From Klebsiella phage EI, in sequence record MN106245.1: a DNA stretch of 64,000 bases. The stretch is one strand, 5' to 3'. This document shows positions 26,978 to 39,125 of this stretch, piece after piece (the first letter of the stretch is position 1; the number at the start of each line of letters is the position of its first letter). Position numbers and translations under genes: made by a program. Under the pieces are notes generated by a model, which was not told where the DNA came from, ran no database searches, and saw only the letters and a program-made list of their open reading frames with translations.

Positions 26978-27424
26978 TCATGCTACATTAGGATACAACT
27001 TCTGCATAATACGGTAAAGAGACAGCCCCATTACATGTTTCCACATCTCAGGTTTAATGCATGCGAATGCATCCATTTCAGGAATAGAAGACCCATCTTC
27101 AAACGTGTGATAAGCGGTGCATTTGCAATTCCTGAAGCTCTCGATGTCCACGAAGCGCATATAACTAAACAGATGAATATTCTTATTCCGAGCGTACTCG
27201 TGCTCGCCTAGGTCATACAGGGCTTCAGGATTAAAGTCTGTGAATCCAGTTTCTTCTTGGCATTCACGGATTGCTGCTTCTTTAGGAGATTCGCCCGGTT
27301 CTACGTGACCTTTAGGAATGTCCCATCGAGAACTTCCGTCTTTACGCTTAATGCCGGTCATACGAGCCATGAACAGACGATGGTCTTTAGTAAAGAACAT
27401 AATCCCGGCGCTTAATTCTTTCAT
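26978..27424 (-). CDS. nudE: Nudix hydrolase
   Basis: 148 aa; Nudix box GHVEPGESPKEAAIRECQEETG. Confidence 0.85.
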   Translation of the reverse strand: MKELSAGIMFFTKDHRLFMARMTGIKRKDGSSRWDIPKGHVEPGESPKEAAIRECQEETGFTDFNPEALYDLGEHEYARNKNIHLFSYMRFVDIESFRNCKCTAYHTFEDGSSIPEMDAFACIKPEMWKHVMGLSLYRIMQKLYPNVA

Positions 27425-29702: not shown

Positions 29703-30665
29703 TCATTTCTGAAACGGCAGAATCAAATGCTCATTTTTGTGAAAGCGATCAATATAATCGTTCACACCCAGAGTTTTGTACATATGAACTACCTTATGGT
29801 AGTTCTCCCAAGCGTATTCACGGAACCAGCCTGAAGTAATCGACGTACACACTTTCTCAAGAGCCATCATGAAGGAATGCTCAGAACTTACATTCTGGAA
29901 GTTATTAGGGACCTGAGAACGCTCCAAGGCCAAGACACAGGTTTCTTCGTAAACGCCGGCCAGTTTAATAGCCTCTGGTAGCGACTCGAACTTCTCGCGA
30001 GAAGTCATGACTTCAGAGCCATCTTTCATGTAGAAAGTATAAGCGGGACGGTCTGCCAGAGCTACAGCCCGGTGGATGCTGTCATGGTCAAGCGTATAAA
30101 TGGTATCATTAAAGAACGTACTTTTGTTCACATCCAGCTTAGGATGGTTGTAGTTCAGAGTTTCTTTCTGACGAAGGAGCATAATCTCTTCCATAGCCAA
30201 AGAGAGTTTAACCCCTTTGTTACGCAAGAAGCGAATATGATGCATTGTTTTACGGAAGAATGGGTTATTCTTTTTGAAACGATGGCTCATTTTGATAGCC
30301 AAGCACATTTCTGGAGTAGCCCAGTAAAATCCAGAAATATTGTCCTTAGTGAGGAACTCTTCAGAATAACGTAAGAGTTCAAAGCTCGAAGTGAAATCCT
30401 CTGGTAGCATCTTATTAACTTCCTGGCGGATTCGAGTAATAGAAGGAACGATATATGCTTCAAAGTGAGTTTCACGGCCATTATGCATGCATTTGAATGC
30501 ACGTACATCAGGATTATTGACTGCTACTTCAATACCTAACATTTGGGCCTTAAAGGCATTCCAAGAACCTTGATCTGCGATGAAGTCCCAATCGCTGTTT
30601 TTGATGTCATCGTAACCGATAAGACCGTGGTGTTCAAGAGCGCGAGAACCGATAACTAGCATCAT
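29703..30665 (-). CDS. hypothetical protein
   Basis: 320 aa ORF, no motif recognised. Confidence 0.5.
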   Translation of the reverse strand: MMLVIGSRALEHHGLIGYDDIKNSDWDFIADQGSWNAFKAQMLGIEVAVNNPDVRAFKCMHNGRETHFEAYIVPSITRIRQEVNKMLPEDFTSSFELLRYSEEFLTKDNISGFYWATPEMCLAIKMSHRFKKNNPFFRKTMHHIRFLRNKGVKLSLAMEEIMLLRQKETLNYNHPKLDVNKSTFFNDTIYTLDHDSIHRAVALADRPAYTFYMKDGSEVMTSREKFESLPEAIKLAGVYEETCVLALERSQVPNNFQNVSSEHSFMMALEKVCTSITSGWFREYAWENYHKVVHMYKTLGVNDYIDRFHKNEHLILPFQK

Positions 30666-31042
30666 AATATTTTCCTCAGTTGGTTTGTAGGAGCATTATA
30701 CTGATTTTTAAGGCGGTTGTAAACTCTTTTACGGCATAAAGCTAAAAACATTTCATGCTCTGAAGGAGGCTCTTTCCAACGCTGTTCTTCAAAGTCGTAG
30801 ATTAGAACGGGAAGAGATGTACCACGCAGAACAGGATACTGGTCATGCATATCGTATAGTAGTTTACGACCTATAGACATATGTTCTAAGGCTCTTGAAA
30901 TCTCTCCAGCCCAATTGAACAGATTCAGACATAGGTTGTGGTGCTTATCTCTTTCCCACCAATGGATATACCCGTTCTTATGGAACGGGGTTTGAGTTTC
31001 GATACAGTAATCAACAGTCAAGTGAGCTACTCTGCCAGCCAA
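30662..31042 (-). CDS. hypothetical protein
   Basis: 126 aa ORF. Confidence 0.4.
   Translation of the reverse strand: MAGRVAHLTVDYCIETQTPFHKNGYIHWWERDKHHNLCLNLFNWAGEISRALEHMSIGRKLLYDMHDQYPVLRGTSLPVLIYDFEEQRWKEPPSEHEMFLALCRKRVYNRLKNQYNAPTNQLRKIL
30668..30725 (-). promoter_or_regulatory. early-promoter-like module
   Basis: tttgtaggagcattatact...gttgtaaac. Confidence 0.4.
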
Positions 31043-31197
31043 GGATTGAAATATTATTGTAGCCTACTTGAACAGCGCTATGAATATTCAGGCCACTTCG
31101 GTCGTCGAAGTAAATATCGACATTTTCATTTTCTTCTGCACAAAGCTGGAACAGATTTTCCAGAGCAGCTTTGGCAATGCGTACAGCACAATCTAAT

Positions 31198-31482
31198 TCA
31201 CGAGACATGTTTACCTCTGCAATATTTGATGAAGCGGTTAATTTCAGCTTCAGTGATTTGTTGGTTTTCTACTATGATCCATTCACCGTCAATGAATTTA
31301 GCATCAGGATAAGTGAATCCATCTAATTCTTGGATAAGCTTTTCATAAAGATATGCGGCCGCTTTTACCTTTTCACGAACAGTGTACTGGGTGTACAGCA
31401 TATGCAAATACGCTACAGAACAAGTGCTTTCGAAGCCATGTTCATTTTGGTAATGCAAATAGCAATTTTTAACGAAAATCAT
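31198..31482 (-). CDS. hypothetical protein (start refined to MIFVKN)
   Basis: ORF to 31503 overlaps promoter module. Confidence 0.35.
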   Translation of the reverse strand: MIFVKNCYLHYQNEHGFESTCSVAYLHMLYTQYTVREKVKAAAYLYEKLIQELDGFTYPDAKFIDGEWIIVENQQITEAEINRFIKYCRGKHVS

Positions 31483-31530
31483 TGTTCCTCCTGTAAGGGT
31501 CACTATAACATGACCCTTAGTGAATGTAAA

Positions 31531-31767
31531 CTAGCAGTTCTGCATAGAGCTGGAATACCAGAAGCCTTGGTCGTGAGGCAGATAGTTATCATCACGAATC
31601 CATTTGTAGCTTTCCCACTCATCAGAGGTTACAGGGATATACTCTTCATTGCCAGCGCAGAAATGCTCGCCCGTTGCTTCTGCCATAGCTTCACCTTCAG
31701 AGATCAGTTTAGAAATGGCTTGTTCGACATCGCGGATTGTTCCAAGCTTAAATTCTGCTTTAATCAT
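31531..31767 (-). CDS. SSxC-tail small protein family member A
   Basis: 78 aa, C-terminal FWYSSSMQNC. Confidence 0.45.
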   Translation of the reverse strand: MIKAEFKLGTIRDVEQAISKLISEGEAMAEATGEHFCAGNEEYIPVTSDEWESYKWIRDDNYLPHDQGFWYSSSMQNC

Positions 31768-31776
31768 TTTATTTCC

Positions 31777-32031
31777 TTAACAAGAGCTAGGATGCCAAAT
31801 ACGACCATCTGCTTCTACATTAAATTCACGTCCAGCTTCTTCGCCATAACAAGAACTGTTCAGCCAATCTTCGAAACGAATAGAACCGTCGTAGGTGTCA
31901 AATTCAATACCGAAGTTCTGTTCACTAGCCATTTTAGAAACTTTGTTAAACAGGATAGCCAGTTCTTTTGCAGCTGCTTCTAATTCGGTTACATTACTCA
32001 TTTTTAACATTCCATAGATGAAGAGACCCAA
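31777..32031 (-). CDS. SSxC-tail small protein family member B
   Basis: 84 aa, C-terminal RIWHPSSC. Confidence 0.45.
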   Translation of the reverse strand: MGLFIYGMLKMSNVTELEAAAKELAILFNKVSKMASEQNFGIEFDTYDGSIRFEDWLNSSCYGEEAGREFNVEADGRIWHPSSC

Positions 32032-32285
32032 CCACCTGTTTCAAGGCTCGTGTAGTACTCGTGTTGATTAACGGTAGCCCATGAAGGATTACCTTGTTCA
32101 GTGTACTGCTCAAGTTCTTTCTTTAAGAAACCTGGCGAATAATAAGTACCGCCCATACCGTAAGCAGGACTAATAGTGAATTCAGTATTATAGCGATCTG
32201 CTACAACTTTAGCATGACGAATCGCATCATTAATAGCTTCAACCGCTTTAGCCATTTCTTCCTTAGGATTTCGTTTCATTAGCAC
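32004..32285 (-). CDS. SSxC-tail small protein family member C
   Basis: 93 aa, C-terminal GGWVSSSMEC; overlaps B start. Confidence 0.45.
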   Translation of the reverse strand: MLMKRNPKEEMAKAVEAINDAIRHAKVVADRYNTEFTISPAYGMGGTYYSPGFLKKELEQYTEQGNPSWATVNQHEYYTSLETGGWVSSSMEC

Positions 32286-32530
32286 ATCTCACTAGATGAA
32301 ACCCATGCGCCTTCAACCGTTTTACCGTTTTCGTCAAGGTCTACATCATAGCACTGGCAATAGTATTCAAGACCGTAGTCTTCAGCACTAGTACCTTTAG
32401 GGTAATATGTGCGGCCGTTACCATATTCACCTGTACTAAATGATACACCCATTTCGTCAGCGATAGCTTCTGCTTCAGCTTCGATCTGTTCAGTCAGGCC
32501 CATGACAGCCTTAATAGCTTCTCGTAAAGA

Positions 32531-33294
32531 GCACACGTCTGAACTCCAGTCACGAGTGGATATCTCGTATGCCGTCTTCTGCTTGAAAAAAAAAAGAATT
32601 TAAATATTTCGAGGATATTTGCATATCCATAGAGGACATATATAAAACAAGAGAAACATATACACCGTTCTATGATGATAGAGCTGATTATAATACTAAT
32701 TCAAAATCGTATTATGATTATGTTTCAAATCTATCAAAACTGATTGAAGTATTGGCACGTCGTATTTGGGAATATGACGGTGAATTAAAAAAACGTTTCA
32801 AAAATTGGGACGATTTAATGAAAAAATTTCCAGATGACGCTAAAGAATTATTTAGAGGATGGTTAAACGACGGTACGATTGATAAAATCATTCATGACGA
32901 GTTTACAAAATATTCTGCTGGACTAACTTCAGCTTTTGCTGTATTTAAAATTGCTGAAATGAAACAAATGAATGATTTTAAAGCAGAAGTTAAAGACTTA
33001 ATTAAAGATATTGACCGTTTCGTTAATGGGTTTGAATTAAATGAGCTTGAACCAAAGTTTGTGATGGGCTTTGGTGGTATTCGCAACGCAGTTAACCAAT
33101 CTATTAATATTGATAAAGAAACAAATCATATTTATACAACACAATCAGACTCACAATCTCCAGAGGGTTTTTGGATAAATAAATTAACCCCTAGCGGTGA
33201 CTTACTTTCAAGTATGCGTATAGTACAAGGTGGCCACGGTACAACAGTAGGTTTAGAAAGACAATCAAACGGTGAAATGAAAATACCATTTGTT
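32531..33294 (+). other. AT-rich inserted segment bounded by 51-bp direct repeats
   Basis: repeat copies at 32479-32529 and 33296-33346; composition visibly lower GC; only plus-strand coding in a minus-strand region. Confidence 0.5.
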
Positions 33295-33357
33295 TCAGCT
33301 TCGATCTGTTCAGTCAGGCCCATGACAGCCTTAATAGCTTCTCGTGCTGATTTATAA
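32752..33357 (+). CDS. hypothetical ORF carried on the insertion (TTG start, no in-frame ATG)
   Basis: about 200 aa open frame in AT-rich DNA; runs into the repeat; may be a 5'-truncated fragment. Confidence 0.3.
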   Translation: MARRIWEYDGELKKRFKNWDDLMKKFPDDAKELFRGWLNDGTIDKIIHDEFTKYSAGLTSAFAVFKIAEMKQMNDFKAEVKDLIKDIDRFVNGFELNELEPKFVMGFGGIRNAVNQSINIDKETNHIYTTQSDSQSPEGFWINKLTPSGDLLSSMRIVQGGHGTTVGLERQSNGEMKIPFVSASICSVRPMTALIASRADL

Positions 33358-33397
33358 TCATTGTATTCAGGAACTTCTACTTCAAAAGTATATTTGC

Positions 33398-33763
33398 TCA
33401 TTTTCTCATCTCTTTTAAGAAAGCTAAGGTTTCATCTCTGGAATCAAGAAGGCGCTGTTCTGCATTTTCTTTTTCCCACTCTTTTACTTCTTTTCGGTAA
33501 TTATACATATGTTTTAATTTAGCACAGCCATTAATGACATACGGTATAGCCATAATAGGGAATCCAAAAGAAAACCCAGTTACTATCATGATCAAAATTG
33601 ATAGTACAGACATCTCAGCATCCATTTCATTAATCATGAATGCCGGATAAAATATCATAGCACACAGACCTATAGTAAGTCCTGCCAGTATAAACAAGAA
33701 CTTGTCTGTAATTACCTTTGCATAACCCCAGTCAATAGGTTTATTGCGATAGTATCTAGCCAT
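33398..33763 (-). CDS. membrane protein
   Basis: 121 aa, two TM helices. Confidence 0.4.
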   Translation of the reverse strand: MARYYRNKPIDWGYAKVITDKFLFILAGLTIGLCAMIFYPAFMINEMDAEMSVLSILIMIVTGFSFGFPIMAIPYVINGCAKLKHMYNYRKEVKEWEKENAEQRLLDSRDETLAFLKEMRK

Positions 33764-34325
33764 TTACTGCCTCACGACAATGTTTGATGAACTCTTCTAC
33801 AACGATCTGCTTTGCTAATTCAGGGTTCTGGCTGAACTCATAGATCTCTGGCGACAGTACAGTTCTAAGATAAGTGCGCCGTTCACTATAGTACCCTTGT
33901 CCAGGCATATTAGTATAGTTAGGGTTGCAAAGTAAAGAAACCGTGTAAATTTTACCTTCAATCATAAATTCTAAGACAAAAGCAAAATGGTCCTCGTTTT
34001 TAGATAAAAACTTTGCCTTATCTCTCGCGTAAGAGAACCAATGCTCATTATCATCATTGTACGCGTAGATGCTGTATTCAAGTTGATAGATTCCTTCGAT
34101 ACGAGCACCATTATAACGACGGCTGAATTCCAGCACGATTTCTTTTATAAACTTAGTATTGGCCAGCATAATGGCAGGTGGGTATTTTTTGTTGTTATGG
34201 CTTCCACGGGTCTGCAAAAAATTATTTTCAGAGCAACGGTCTTGCATATATGGCATCAAAAGCTCAATAGCTTTTTCAGGGATACCTTTTTCACGCAGTG
34301 CTTCAACTTGTAATCTTTTAGACAT
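33756..34325 (-). CDS. hypothetical protein
   Basis: 189 aa ORF. Confidence 0.45.
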   Translation of the reverse strand: MSKRLQVEALREKGIPEKAIELLMPYMQDRCSENNFLQTRGSHNNKKYPPAIMLANTKFIKEIVLEFSRRYNGARIEGIYQLEYSIYAYNDDNEHWFSYARDKAKFLSKNEDHFAFVLEFMIEGKIYTVSLLCNPNYTNMPGQGYYSERRTYLRTVLSPEIYEFSQNPELAKQIVVEEFIKHCREAVNG

Positions 34326-34373: not shown

Positions 34374-34967
34374 TTACTTCAGAGAAGCCAGGTATTCCTG
34401 AACATCTGCAGTTGTGGTGGTAGTACCAGGTTCAGCACCGTTAAAGGTTTCAACCTTCATAGTGATGTCGTCGACAGATACTTTAGCCAGAGAAGCCAGT
34501 TCGATCACATCGTCGGCAGAGCTAATACCAAGATCAGCAGCAGAGCGAGTTTCACGGATGTATTCGAGCTTAACAGCCAGGTCCAGACGAGCATCGTCCA
34601 ACTCAACTACTTTACGTTCGATTTCTTCACGCATACCTGCATAACCAGCAGCTTTTTCACGCAGGGCCGCGGCAGTTCGACGATACAGAAGACCAAGCTT
34701 AGCGTGTGTTTCCACGTTCATGTTTTCAGCGATCAGACGACGAATTTCTTTTTCTTTCGATTCAGCCAGTTTATCTTTTTCGATGGCCAGAGCCAAGATA
34801 CGTTTCTCTTCATTGACAGACTTAACATGAGAAACACGAAGCTGCGTGATTTTGTCAATCAGGATGTTCGCCGCTTCAGTATACTGGTCTTCAACAGTAG
34901 TATTTTTAGCAACAAAGGTACCCAGTTTAGCACGGATGAATGCAACCAGTTTTTTCAGAATAGCCAT
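34374..34967 (-). CDS. PspA/IM30 (Vipp1)-like coiled-coil protein
   Basis: 197 aa; [19 protein letters not shown] start resembles PspA [19 protein letters not shown]; all-helical. Confidence 0.5.
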
Positions 34968-36453: not shown

Positions 36454-36530
36454 TGGTGCCGGTTGACGGAATCGAACCGCCGACCTTCTCATTACAAGTG
36501 AGTTGCTCTACCTACTGAGCTAAACCGGCA
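36454..36530 (-). tRNA. tRNA-Thr (anticodon UGU), CCA encoded
   Basis: cloverleaf by hand, T-loop TTCGATT, anticodon loop cuUGUaa. Confidence 0.7.
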
Positions 36531-36534
36531 TAAG

Positions 36535-36610
36535 ACGGAAATAAGGATTCGAACCTTATGTAGTTGCACAGACGTATCTGCCGTTGAATTCCTCACTAAG
36601 TTTAAGCAAC
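36535..36610 (-). tRNA. tRNA-like gene, isotype unresolved
   Basis: canonical T-arm (TAAGG-TTCGAAT-CCTTA) but acceptor/anticodon pairing not resolved by hand. Confidence 0.35.
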
Positions 36611-36628
36611 TATTCCCAGGTCTTAATT

Positions 36629-36713
36629 TGGTGCACCGAGAGGGATTCGAACCCTCAATCCTTGCGGCGTAGCATTTTAAGTGCTATGTGTATACCAGTT
36701 CCACCATCGATGC
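36629..36713 (-). tRNA. tRNA-Leu (anticodon UAA), class II
   Basis: 85 nt, CCA encoded, long variable arm, loop cuUAAaa. Confidence 0.7.
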
Positions 36714-36717
36714 GAAT

Positions 36718-36794
36718 TGGTCGAGACAGAAGGATTCGAACCTTCGACCTGCGGATTAGAAGTCCGCTGCTCTATCCAGCTGAGCTATGTCCCG
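36718..36794 (-). tRNA. tRNA-Arg (anticodon UCU)
   Basis: 77 nt, D-arm GCTCAGCTGGATAGAGC, loop cuUCUaa, CCA encoded. Confidence 0.75.
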
Positions 36795-36802
36795 AGAATG
36801 TT

Positions 36803-36925
36803 CAGACAGGACTTGAACCTGTACGCTTAGGTCTGTTGCACCGGTTTCCGCCTTACTCACCTGGGTACCAACCAGGGTTTCAAACAAGCTATTCCGGTCG
36901 TGTCTACCGATTTCACCACTGAACA
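36803..36925 (-). ncRNA. 123-nt tRNA-like small stable RNA
   Basis: class-II-like 5' D-arm and 3' T-arm/acceptor that pair as a 7-bp acceptor stem but are 123 nt apart; adjacent to tRNA-Arg. Confidence 0.45.
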
Positions 36926-36935
36926 TTTAATAAGT

Positions 36936-37172
36936 TTATTTAGTATACTCTATAAAAGCTAAAGCAAAATGTGGATCTACCTTAACAATTTTATGAGATA
37001 CCTTGAATCGATACGAATAAGAATCTACACCAATCCCATGACCTGTTTTGCCAGTTACTTTACCAACACGCATTTCACCATCTTGGCCCATACCAGAGGT
37101 TTTTACACCAAATAAGATATAATCGCCTTCAAAAACTGGAACACCATGTCGGTCTTTCATTAATTCTATCAT
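36936..37172 (-). CDS. hypothetical protein
   Basis: 78 aa ORF. Confidence 0.4.
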   Translation of the reverse strand: MIELMKDRHGVPVFEGDYILFGVKTSGMGQDGEMRVGKVTGKTGHGIGVDSYSYRFKVSHKIVKVDPHFALAFIEYTK

Positions 37173-37621
37173 TTCGAAGCCTTAAGCATTTCACGTACTC
37201 GATAAAGATTGCTGCAGAACTCTTGTTCGGTCAGAACAGTTTCGTTCTTTTTAGACCGTCCCATAGAGTGAGTTAACGTAGCGTTCTGTGTGGCCAGGAT
37301 AGCTCTCTTGAATCCTTCATTAGTGGCCAATTGATTATATGCCCTTTCAATAAGAAGCGTATAGGCGTCACTCTGGCGTTGCATAGGGACGCCTTTCCAG
37401 TACAGAGTTTGCGTACGGAACCATTTCTTCTTTTTACCTTTGAACTTAGCTGCTTTACCAACTAAAGTGCAAACGTGTGCAGCCATTTCAGGAGAGCTGA
37501 ACTTCAACGACTGTAAGAAGCCTTCCATTGAAGCACATTTAACGCCGTCTATTTCAAAAGCATGCGGAGCAAAGTTGCTTAAAGCGCAACTAGGGTAACT
37601 TGACCCTGAGCCAATGTCCAT
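37169..37621 (-). CDS. NADAR (YbiA/DUF1768)-family protein
   Basis: SNFAPHAFEIDGVKCASMEGFLQSLKF aligns to YbiA SNFAAWPIKVDGKTWPTSEHYFQAQKF core. Confidence 0.6.
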   Translation of the reverse strand: MDIGSGSSYPSCALSNFAPHAFEIDGVKCASMEGFLQSLKFSSPEMAAHVCTLVGKAAKFKGKKKKWFRTQTLYWKGVPMQRQSDAYTLLIERAYNQLATNEGFKRAILATQNATLTHSMGRSKKNETVLTEQEFCSNLYRVREMLKASK

Positions 37622-37884
37622 TAGATATCCTCTACGTGAATCATGATTGAGCGTCGACGAACAACGCATCCTTTAAGTTCTTCAGCAGCTTCAATTAGTA
37701 CACGGCCCGACGGAAGAATAAGCCCGTCAATTCGCTGTTGGGCCCGTGCTATATCCGTAAAACCATCTGCTTCAAGGAGCCCTGTGAATTCCCATCCTTC
37801 CCAGCATTCGTTATTAACGAATGAAGCATATGAGCCGAATTCTGGATTAAAAATTACGTAATCTTGTTGCATCTGTTGTTCCAA
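37621..37884 (-). CDS. hypothetical protein
   Basis: 87 aa ORF. Confidence 0.35.
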   Translation of the reverse strand: MEQQMQQDYVIFNPEFGSYASFVNNECWEGWEFTGLLEADGFTDIARAQQRIDGLILPSGRVLIEAAEELKGCVVRRRSIMIHVEDI

Positions 37885-38189
37885 ATTTTAGTTAGACCAG
37901 CATGCTCGAAGGCACGCATACAAGAAAGACCGACTTTACCGTGTTCTTCCCACTCGATGATTCTATCATTATCTCTGAAAGCAAGACCTTTGGCTGGTTC
38001 AGCGTAAGGCTTCAATTCTTCAGGAACTTCATCCATAGAATCATAGACCACAGTAACGCCACCTTTACAACCTGCGATACCTACACCGCATTTGCATTCT
38101 AACACACAACAACTATAACTGATATACGTAAAAGGGAATCTTTCGCCACAGAAAGGGCAGGGGAGTAAATCTTCATTTAGAATGGTCAT
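37854..38189 (-). CDS. Lar-like restriction-alleviation zinc-finger protein
   Basis: 111 aa; N-terminal LLPCPFCG motif plus Cys-rich core. Confidence 0.35.
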   Translation of the reverse strand: MTILNEDLLPCPFCGERFPFTYISYSCCVLECKCGVGIAGCKGGVTVVYDSMDEVPEELKPYAEPAKGLAFRDNDRIIEWEEHGKVGLSCMRAFEHAGLTKIWNNRCNKIT

Positions 38190-38211
38190 AATATTTTTCT
38201 CAGTAGTTGAT

Positions 38212-38300
38212 TGGACGGAACGCCTGGACTCGAACCAGGTTATAGAACAATTGGCGTTGCACTACATTTTTATGAGGCCAACAAATCGTTTCCTCAACAG
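38212..38300 (-). tRNA. tRNA-like element with aberrant anticodon arm (possible pseudo-tRNA), CAU-type loop
   Basis: encoded CCA, T-arm CCTGG-TTCGAGT-CCAGG; stem TTGGC...GCCAA encloses CTCATAA plus 14 extra nt; no acceptor partner found. Confidence 0.3.
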
Positions 38301-38359
38301 GCACGTCGCCAAACGTGTCATCCTGGAGAAAAGTCAATGTGTCCTCGAACCGATTAATT

Positions 38360-38436
38360 TGGTGACCCCATCTGGACTTGAACCAGAAACCTACCAGTTA
38401 TGAGCCGGGTGCTCTAACCAATTGAGCTATAGGGCC
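38360..38436 (-). tRNA. tRNA with CAU anticodon (Met or lysidine-Ile)
   Basis: 77 nt, CCA encoded, D-arm GCTCAATTGGTTAGAGC, loop cuCAUaa. Confidence 0.65.
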
Positions 38437-38623
38437 AAAAGCTCTGTGCGATATTCTGCCAGAGCGTCATTATCCGGGTCTAAAGAGTACAAACAAGTAG
38501 GTTATTGTAGAACACAGCGTACTGTGGGAACAGCGCCTTCGGTCCCGGCATTTACTTACGGACCTCTAACTCATCTCTTTAGACTGCCATGTAATTATCT
38601 TTCGTAGGGATACGAATCTCTCA

Positions 38624-38639
38624 AGCTTTCCGGAAAGCT
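38624..38639. repeat. perfect 16-nt palindrome AGCTTTCCGGAAAGCT inside non-coding gap
   Basis: read directly. Confidence 0.6.
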
Positions 38640-38879
38640 GAATAAGAGTTAATGGCTCTCATATACCCGTGCACAGATATAATCTTTGTTAACACATTAA
38701 CTGAATCGCTATACCTCGAAAGATAACTAGTACCTTCCTGCGCCGATTCAAGCTGTGATATACCTGGTTTCAATGAGGGACCTGTATAACAGGGAACGTC
38801 AGTTCGACGACTTGCGAGTGCGCATCCATCTGGGCTAGGCCTCAACAAGGTCATTACCAGTTTGGTCTCGCTTCTTATT

Positions 38880-38962
38880 TGGCGGTTAGTGCAGGTATCG
38901 AACCTGCCTTGTCCTAAGACACGGATTAACAGTCCGTCGCTTCCCCTCTCAGCCAACTAACC
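38880..38962 (-). tRNA. tRNA with GUU anticodon (Asn-type) but class-II-like long variable region
   Basis: 83 nt, CCA encoded, stem ACGGA-cuGUUaa-TCCGT. Confidence 0.5.
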
Positions 38963-38970
38963 TAAATTAC

Positions 38971-39041
38971 TGGGATAACAGGACTCGAACCTGTGCATAC
39001 CGGAATCAAAATCCGGGGCCTTACCAACTTGGCTATATCCC
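38971..39041 (-). tRNA. tRNA-Gln (anticodon UUG), no encoded CCA
   Basis: stem CCGGA-uuUUGau-TCCGG, T-loop TTCGAGT. Confidence 0.65.
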
Positions 39042-39047
39042 ATTTAA

Positions 39048-39125
39048 TGGAGGCGGAGGCAGGACTCGAACCTGCGCGTGTCGGGATATGAGCCCAACAT
39101 TCTGACCATCTGAAGTTACTCCGCA
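39048..39125 (-). tRNA. second tRNA with CAU anticodon (Met or Ile2)
   Basis: CCA encoded, stem TTGGG-cuCAUau-CCCGA. Confidence 0.55.

Follow-up and report, generated by a model that had tools for sequence, protein, structure and literature searches.

Tandem Small Proteins with a Conserved Cysteine-Terminated Tail and a Nucleotidyltransferase-Type Enzyme Form a Phage-Specific Module in Klebsiella Phage EI

Klebsiella phage EI (record MN106245.1), of which a window of 64,000 nucleotides was analyzed, carries on its minus strand an array of five genes, designated A to E, for small proteins with a common tryptophan-, serine- and cysteine-containing C-terminal tail. Downstream of the array, 350 bp beyond member E and on the same strand, lies the gene of a 320-aa enzyme with a Pol-beta-type nucleotidyltransferase (NTase) core (29703–30665). 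The small proteins and the enzyme constitute a conserved phage-specific two-component module with one to five small proteins per enzyme, and the small proteins are very probably the functional partner of the nucleotidyltransferase. The enzyme is carried by jumbo phages and by T4-like phages of Escherichia, Klebsiella, Acinetobacter, Aeromonas and Pseudomonas, which include therapeutic candidates. The association of one enzyme with an invariant C-terminal tag of eight residues provides a sharply defined and simply testable hypothesis.

Linkage of the Small Proteins to the Enzyme

Two distant members of the small-protein family, one from a 395-kb jumbo phage and the other from an unrelated contig, each precede a protein of about 300 aa with DUF7277 and DUF7275 domains. 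The linkage was evaluated with the enzyme as anchor in 80 loci from IMG/VR, with identity to the window enzyme down to 38% and contigs of 8–371 kb. At least one tail-bearing open reading frame (ORF) was found in 72 of the 80 loci by regular expression, and in 76 by regular expression or hidden Markov model (HMM). These ORFs almost always lie on the same strand as the enzyme, no more than about 2.3 kb upstream of it. This near-obligate linkage, which provides the strongest hint at function, had escaped the preliminary description. According to a fixed rule, the tail is carried by 194 of 1086 same-strand ORFs ending within 2.6 kb upstream of the enzyme, compared with 10 of 9629 ORFs elsewhere. 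Variation of copy number among phages, which the preliminary description of this DNA had proposed to look for, does exist and ranges from zero to five: 8 loci have no copy, 17 have one, 23 have two, 12 have three, 5 have four and 15 have five. Several of the zero-copy loci show degenerate tails.

The reverse test was realized as five individual look-ups, in which distant small-protein anchors with enough flanking sequence were used; the enzyme was located 0.1–2.5 kb downstream in all five. Tail-bearing ORFs were also present upstream of the enzyme in five of six further loci from metagenome-assembled genomes (MAGs). In all-against-all clustering of the neighbors, no family other than that of the tail-bearing ORFs accompanied the enzyme beyond T4-like synteny, all the rest being confined to 27 loci or fewer. 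Among isolates outside the T4-like group, the pairing occurs in an E. coli Phapecoctavirus with three members, including a B-type protein with the same internal DW-x-SSSCYGE repeat, and in a Pseudomonas Otagovirus. No fusions of the enzyme with a small protein were found among 120 enzyme homologues. In one locus from a human-skin metagenome (L093, 2919–4891) the enzyme is seemingly split, with DUF7277 alone in an ORF downstream of the small proteins and DUF7275 alone in an ORF that lies upstream on the opposite strand; this arrangement could result from an inversion, from misassembly or from a genuinely split enzyme.

Small Proteins of the Array

The preliminary description had reported a tandem family of four minus-strand ORFs with defined C-termini. 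ORF calls and a six-frame scan confirm all four together with their termini; the array, however, has a fifth member, E, which had been missed. Member A (31531–31767) is a protein of 78 aa ending in GFWYSSSMQNC, matches phrog_899 (E 2.1e-11) and is preceded by an AAGGA ribosome-binding site. Member B (31777–32001 from ATG) comprises 74 aa, or 84 aa from an upstream TTG, ends in RIWHPSSC and matches phrog_899 with E 1e-7; it has an internal DWLNSSC motif in addition to the terminal IWHPSSC, which represents the shorter W-x-x-S-S-C spacing. Member C (32004–32279; 91 aa, ending in GGWVSSSMEC) matches the same profile with E 4.5e-18. Member D is encoded in two parts in this record. The N-terminal part (MSKYTFEVEVPEYNDYKSAREAIKAVMGLTEQIEAE..., 33294–33401) is 99% identical in DNA to vB_Kpn_F48 gp004, and the C-terminal part (...AEAIADEMGVSFSTGEYGNGRTYYPKG...EGAWVSSSEMC, followed by the stop codon) occupies 32279–32525; rejoined, they give a protein of 100 aa ending in GAWVSSSEMC (phrog_899, E 7.5e-21). 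Member E (31011–31208; 65 aa, ending in GWQSSSLDC) belongs to phrog_4882 (E 4.4e-31). All five are encoded by the minus strand.

A six-frame scan of the whole 64 kb for W-x(1-2)-SS-x(0-4)-C followed by a stop codon returned A–D and E only, so the tail pattern is not a chance occurrence. The ratio of nonsynonymous to synonymous substitution rates (dN/dS) relative to phage Potts1, which is 83% identical, is 0.03–0.26 across all five members (0.03 for B and 0.08 for E), and on this ground A–E are real, constrained genes. Paralogs align beyond the tail, as the preliminary description supposed: A–D all match phrog_899 (E from 1e-7 to 7.5e-21), and B was aligned to the family over its full length by profile-profile comparison (hhalign, 95.7%). 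According to hhalign, E has in common with A–D the last 17 residues or so and nothing more. The conservation of the C-terminal W, S, S and Cys also held when the paralogs were aligned; the positions without variation in the alignment of A–E are a single Phe and, C-terminal to it, W, two Ser and the final Cys. The central YY(S/P)xG segment attributed to the whole set is present in C and D but not in the other members in the window, and a YGxGGTYY segment is common in distant members. Overlapping junctions suggestive of translational coupling were likewise borne out in part. The stop codon of the e.4-like gene and the start of D overlap in ATGA, and the stop of D and the start of C in TAATG, but gaps of 2 nt and 9 nt separate C from B and B from A, respectively.

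The family as a whole corresponds to phrog_899/phrog_4882. Profile search of 1.84 billion representatives resulted in 263 clusters at 50% identity (E ≤ 1e-3), and a word-indexed search yielded 87 proteins, all annotated as hypothetical. Nearly all members end in the consensus G-x-W-x-[S/A/P]-S-S-x-x-C-COOH. A tail with W at position -7 and C as the last residue (position 0) is present in 198 of the 222 motif-bearing family sequences collected. Within these 198, the constancy of W(-7), S(-4) (198/198) and C(0) is a consequence of selection of the set, S(-3) is found in 195 and G(-9) in 150, and position -5 is occupied by S, A or P. The proteins are strongly acidic, with a median net charge of -9 at a median length of 92 aa. 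Many of them also contain A-[ED]-x-I-A-D-x-x-G-h-x-F and Y-G-x-G-G-T-Y-Y. The paralogue types D, C, B, A and E diverged anciently, and each is conserved across genera. In the B type, the internal D-W-x-x-S-S-C-Y-G-E motif is kept together with the terminal W-x-x-S-S-C from Marfavirus through Tegunavirus to Phapecoctavirus; both copies are present in the window member (31777–32001) and in the members of loci L104 (2413–2631) and L102 (7690–7911). Since the internal copy is retained, the motif is able to function, or at least to persist, away from the C-terminus.

The AlphaFold2 model of member C, built on an alignment of 90 sequences, has a mean predicted local distance difference test score (pLDDT) of 94.8 and a predicted template modelling score of 0.83. 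It consists, in order, of a long helix at the N-terminus (residues 5–30), a beta-hairpin bearing the YY segment, a second helix, a third strand formed by G-W-V-S and the S-S-x-x-C turn. The body of the small proteins is thus modelled as a compact alpha/beta domain, in which the W-x-S strand would be part of the sheet and S-S-x-x-C would form a terminal turn. Neither a fold search of the PDB with this model nor a PDB sequence search with the small-protein profile returned any match, and Foldseek against BFVD returned uncharacterized family members and nothing else. Pfam and fold searches detected no HEPN (R-x4-6-H) or PII features, and no sequence or fold match was found to DNA mimics of the Ocr/Arn type or to the Tad/Acb nucleotide sponges. 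No significant match to the five small proteins was obtained from Pfam, NCBIfam or PADLOC; the weak match of member E to DUF5448 (E 0.0085) is below the cut-off.

The impression of an unrecognized, tandemly diversified family of Cys-tailed proteins was correct. It has no Pfam or NCBIfam match, its entries in PHROGs are of 'unknown function', and no paper on it was found. Neither the tail motif nor the family is named in curated resources, where phrog_899, phrog_4882 and the enzyme family phrog_2141 are all described as 'unknown function', and the literature search found no description of phrog_899, of the tail peptides or of a link between the small proteins and DUF7275/DUF7277. Some experimental data exist for the Yersinia phage phiR1-RT, in which g125 is the enzyme homologue and g126, g127 and g128 are members of the small-protein family. 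In a toxicity screen with a threshold of 0.4 in relative colony-forming units (CFU), the last three gave relative CFU of 0.94, 0.69 and 1.08, respectively, and none of them was found in the proteome of the virion (Mohanraj et al. 2019, PMC6893735). There is no entry for g125 in the main text or in the searched supplementary tables of the same paper. Toxicity of the small proteins was rejected, the phiR1-RT homologues being non-toxic when expressed alone, as was an internal-protein or virion role, the homologues being undetected in virions.

The Nucleotidyltransferase-Type Enzyme

The enzyme of the window matches phrog_2141 with E 4.1e-145. It combines an N-terminal DUF7277 domain (E 5.5e-26) with a helical DUF7275 domain (E 1.6e-77). 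DUF7277 is a Pol-beta-type nucleotidyltransferase core, in which G-[GS] and D-x-[DE] are present in a Pol-beta fold. Residues G6, S7, D25 and D27, which form the h-G-S...D-x-D catalytic signature, do not vary among 51 diverse homologues. In DUF7275 the invariant residues in the same set are K125, H128, R129, H174, H194, D195, H198, E240, E241, E248, R249, K271, C273, S275, S278, G279 and R282. Structurally, the enzyme is modelled as a MenT/AbiEii-like nucleotidyltransferase. In Pfam only DUF7277 and DUF7275 were matched, and DUF1814/AbiEii was not matched at E ≤ 0.1; a PDB sequence search with the enzyme profile found neither MenT nor any other protein.

The most conserved segment of the enzyme, KVCTSITSGW (residues 271–280, approximately 29826–29855, minus strand), resembles the tail W-x-S-S-S-x-x-C in reverse, which may be a coincidence. 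Its Cys273 is invariant in the 51 sequences, and the motif was not located in two actinophage homologues without tail-bearing neighbors. Cys273 coincides with tails in 89 cases and stands without them in 9; the motif was not located in 3 cases with tails and in 2 without tails, the latter being the two actinophage enzymes. The sample is too small for interpretation and this result was not used.

A total of 2,769 enzyme homologues, all unnamed, were retrieved at E ≤ 1e-5 from a protein-cluster database at 90% identity. The enzyme is present in 732 phage records versus 6 contigs, all of them from MAGs, among 185,579 species genomes, and is for this reason considered essentially virus-only. It is annotated as 'hypothetical' in all but two of the 40 phage records listed. 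The name given in the VAC36 record, 'prohead assembly scaffold protein', is apparently a mis-annotation.

In distant phages, the neighbors of the enzyme/small-protein loci include T4-type RNA ligase 1, PNKP, other RNA ligases, RlaP, a metallophosphatase and tRNA genes. Loci adjoining RNA-repair or tRNA genes are L090 (1204–4240), L005 (1–6614), L092 (4530–7371), L105 (1857–3636) and L106 (2809–6111). Recurrence of RNA ligase, PNKP, RlaP and tRNA genes beside the enzyme hints at an RNA-end function, like that of the characterized MenT toxins, which extend tRNA acceptor ends (PMC10435456).

Possible Functions of the Module

Nucleotidylation of proteins by Pol-beta-fold NTases is well established; GlnD acts on PII, GlnE on glutamine synthetase and MNT on HEPN. 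The preferred mechanism is built by analogy with these systems. The conserved tail would be the element recognized by the nucleotidyltransferase, a role favored by the fact that the E type has nothing but the tail in common with the rest of the family. The tail could enter the active site, where an invariant nucleophile (Ser-4, Ser-3 or the terminal Cys) would accept a nucleoside monophosphate. It is favored as the acceptor because its invariant residues are hydroxyl and thiol nucleophiles, and nucleotidylation is favored because small proteins are known targets of enzymes of this fold. Several different small effectors could in this way be matured or switched by one enzyme, which fits the parallel maintenance of the ancient paralogue types D, C, B, A and E. 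Covalent nucleotidylation of the tail is put forward tentatively, at somewhat less than an even chance. The acidity of the small proteins suggests nucleic-acid or tRNA-end mimicry, and a conflict with the host centered on RNA or tRNA is possible. A further step, in which the nucleotidylated tails yield conjugates of protein and nucleotide that imitate the 3' ends of RNA or tRNA and serve as decoys or inhibitors in RNA conflicts between host and phage, thereby representing a new class of enzyme-matured viral effectors with W-x-S-S-S-x-x-C as their C-terminal tag, is rather doubtful.

Several points weigh against this mechanism. The connection between tail and enzyme is deduced from gene neighborhood. 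The substrates of the characterized MenT enzymes are tRNA 3' ends, not proteins (PMC10435456), and the RNA ligase, PNKP, RlaP and tRNA gene neighbors point to an RNA substrate as well. In the model of member C the W-V-S residues are placed in a well-ordered beta-strand (pLDDT about 90), so conservation of the motif may be partly structural. Nucleotidylation of a Ser gives no obvious need for a strictly terminal Cys, and the B type has a shorter W-to-C spacing together with an internal copy of the motif. Finally, the actinophages Faust and Bachita possess shorter homologues of the enzyme and no tail-bearing neighbors, from which it follows that the enzyme can exist without the small proteins.

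Alternatively, the small proteins could act as antitoxin-like or pseudo-substrate inhibitors which bind the NTase and block or time its activity; the tail would plug the active site, or the terminal Cys would ligate a metal as a 'cysteine switch'. The position of a small protein upstream of a MenT-like NTase reproduces the menA1-menT1 gene order, in which the 68-aa MenA1 blocks MenT1 (PMC10435456). A near-invariant tail would suit insertion into a highly conserved active site, and g126–g128 of phiR1-RT are non-toxic alone in E. coli (PMC6893735). Such inhibition hardly explains why one enzyme should have as many as five ancient paralogues, each of them conserved in its own right. Moreover, the phages are virulent, with no obvious need for addiction or immunity, the actinophage homologues of the enzyme lack any partner of this kind, and the small proteins show no sequence relation or significant fold relation to MenA1 or to any antitoxin. 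The inhibitor explanation is considered unlikely. The possibility that the small proteins are specificity adaptors is also given a low probability. In this case the tail would dock on the enzyme and the variable acidic body would pick the target (tRNAs, other RNAs or host proteins), the array supplying an enzyme of RNA-end modification or RNA repair with interchangeable targeting subunits. The combination of a variable body with an invariant tail, the maintenance of several paralogue types in parallel and the ability of the enzyme to occur alone are all compatible with adaptors. So are the RNA ligase, PNKP, RlaP and tRNA genes that recur beside the enzyme, and its MenT-like fold, since the characterized MenT enzymes modify tRNA acceptor ends. 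However, an invariant Ser-Ser with a terminal Cys is an unusual requirement for a docking peptide, no nucleic-acid-binding fold was detected in these proteins, whose acidity (median -9) makes them poor RNA binders, and the complex with the enzyme is a putative one.

Two other explanations were considered. The small proteins could be accessory effectors that act independently of the enzyme, such as anti-defence proteins or DNA/RNA mimics, and stand beside it by inherited synteny. Their location in a hypervariable early region (the e.x region), their small size, acidity and variable copy number, and their absence among the proteins detected in phiR1-RT virions all agree with this. Nevertheless, the pairing persists in lineages where all other neighbors differ and the enzyme is only 38–45% identical, namely 355–395 kb jumbo phages, Phapecoctavirus, Otagovirus and uncultured contigs; the linkage holds both ways, and no known defence or anti-defence family is matched, which leaves this explanation very unlikely. 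The anti-defence or superinfection-exclusion role proposed in the preliminary description was drawn from the profile of the proteins alone and is compatible with several of the rival explanations; PADLOC returned nothing, and no structural match to known anti-defence proteins was found. The last possibility is that the small proteins are precursors resembling ribosomally synthesized and post-translationally modified peptides (RiPPs), the S-x-x-C-COOH end being dehydrated and cyclized in the manner of the aminovinylcysteine (AviCys) or lanthionine termini known from lanthipeptides of the epidermin type, with Ser activated by the NTase. An S-x-x-C at the extreme C-terminus has the spacing that forms AviCys, and multiple tandem 'precursors' stand beside one enzyme. 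It is hardly credible even so: no enzyme of the LanB, LanM, LanKC or LanD type and no other RiPP enzyme is encoded among the neighboring ORFs, conservation is reversed, with an invariant tail and a varying 'leader', the tail strand forms part of a confidently folded domain spanning the entire protein (pLDDT 94.8), and the S-S-C of the B type has no spacer.

Nucleotidylation of the tail, if real, would add proteins to the substrates of MenT-type enzymes and define a new way in which phage effectors are matured. If, instead, the small proteins regulate or target an RNA-end-modifying enzyme, they would represent a new part of the tRNA-centered arms race between phages and bacteria.

Genomic Context

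The window belongs to a T4-like Klebsiella phage of the genus Marfavirus. Over 31000–33800 it is 97–99% identical to vB_Kpn_F48, PhiKpNIH-6, Marfa and about 20 further Klebsiella phages, and the usual T4 order is observed for the baseplate and tail genes, the seven tRNA genes (36454–39125) and nudE. The array occupies the early minus-strand hypervariable e.x accessory region, in agreement with the accessory setting first assumed for it. Directly upstream are homologues of T4 e.6 (34374–34967) and e.5 (33756–34325) and a gene for an e.4-like membrane protein (33398–33763); nudE (26978–27424) is situated downstream. The locus is about 5 kb away from the tRNA cluster.

Members A and E are separated by an unrelated 94-aa ORF of phrog_20096 (31198–31482, minus strand; dN/dS 0.07), which lacks the tail motif. 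A 72-aa ORF without a family match (30662–30880, minus strand) follows E and precedes the enzyme gene. In the interval from A to the 94-aa ORF, a promoter scan located a T4-early-like match, TTTACA-17-TATAGT, which is overlapped by a 10-bp stem-loop (31485–31530, minus strand; fold -17.7 kcal/mol, z -3.7). A stronger promoter-like site, TTTACA-17-TATAAT (11/12), is present on the minus strand at 30723–30695, inside the 72-aa ORF and just upstream of the enzyme gene. Taken together, the promoter-like sites at 31485–31530 and 30695–30723 suggest that the array and the enzyme may be driven by separate early promoters.

Foreign Insert in Member D

Reconstruction of a full-length D in the preliminary description was correct, because related Marfaviruses encode an intact 100-aa D; the nature of the interruption, an adapter/contaminant chimera, was not recognized. 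D is split by a foreign insert (32526–33293), identified by adapter matches and a match to a Staphylococcus phage. On the plus strand, the 5' end of the insert reads AAGAGCACACGTCTGAACTCCAGTCAC-GAGTGGAT-ATCTCGTATGCCGTCTTCTGCTTG, followed by A10, which is a classic untrimmed Illumina read-through into an indexed adapter; GAGTGGAT is presumably TruSeq index 23. The region from approximately 32591 to 33286 (about 700 bp) is a fragment of a minor tail protein gene of a Staphylococcus Rosenblumvirus, with 96.8% identity to MK922546. An exact 52-bp duplication of phage sequence flanks the insert (32474–32525 equals 33294–33345). None of 23 related Klebsiella phages has the insert, their coverage of the query being only 73%.

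The interruption of D arose in assembly (as a chimeric misassembly or a cross-library contaminant) and is not biological. The alternative that D decayed naturally into a pseudogene, or that a mobile element split the gene, was rejected, since the insert holds an indexed Illumina adapter, the A10 run and a Staphylococcus phage gene. Two false ORFs are created by it, one of 201 aa on the plus strand (32752–33357) and a frameshifted one of 89 aa (33132–33401). Given this chimera, the assembly is to be corrected before annotation or deposition.

Comparison with Known Systems

By architecture, the nearest known kind is a small protein paired with a MenT-type NTase or, more generally, an NTase with a small-protein partner. 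In MenA1-MenT1 (Rv0078B/Rv0078A) of Mycobacterium tuberculosis and the related MenAT/AbiE systems, as in the phages, a protein of about 70 aa is encoded directly upstream of a Pol-beta-fold NTase, and the phage enzyme retains the G-S and D-x-D catalytic motifs. In contrast to these systems, it has no DUF1814/AbiEii match and possesses an extra large, highly conserved helical domain. The phage small proteins are unrelated to MenA1 in sequence and show no significant fold match to it; they occur as one to five diverged paralogues with the invariant C-terminal W-x-S-S-S-x-x-C, and the module is essentially confined to virulent phages. The module differs from MenAT/AbiE in sequence membership, multiplicity, tail motif and viral confinement.

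GlnD-PII and MNT-HEPN (a type VII toxin–antitoxin system) also pair an NTase-fold enzyme with a small protein and serve as the working analogy for the preferred mechanism. In these systems, UMP or AMP is attached covalently to a conserved Tyr side chain of the partner protein, whereas in the phage proteins the modification is putative and its candidate sites are two Ser and the Cys at the very end of the chain.

The T4 e.x cluster (e.2–e.8, between nudE and the tRNA genes) shares its genomic position with the array and the enzyme. The genes e.6-e.5-e.4 are present in T4, but the small proteins and the enzyme are missing from its cluster, and no T4 e.x protein ends in the tail motif. The place taken in phage EI by five tail-bearing genes and the NTase is occupied in T4 by e.3 and e.2.

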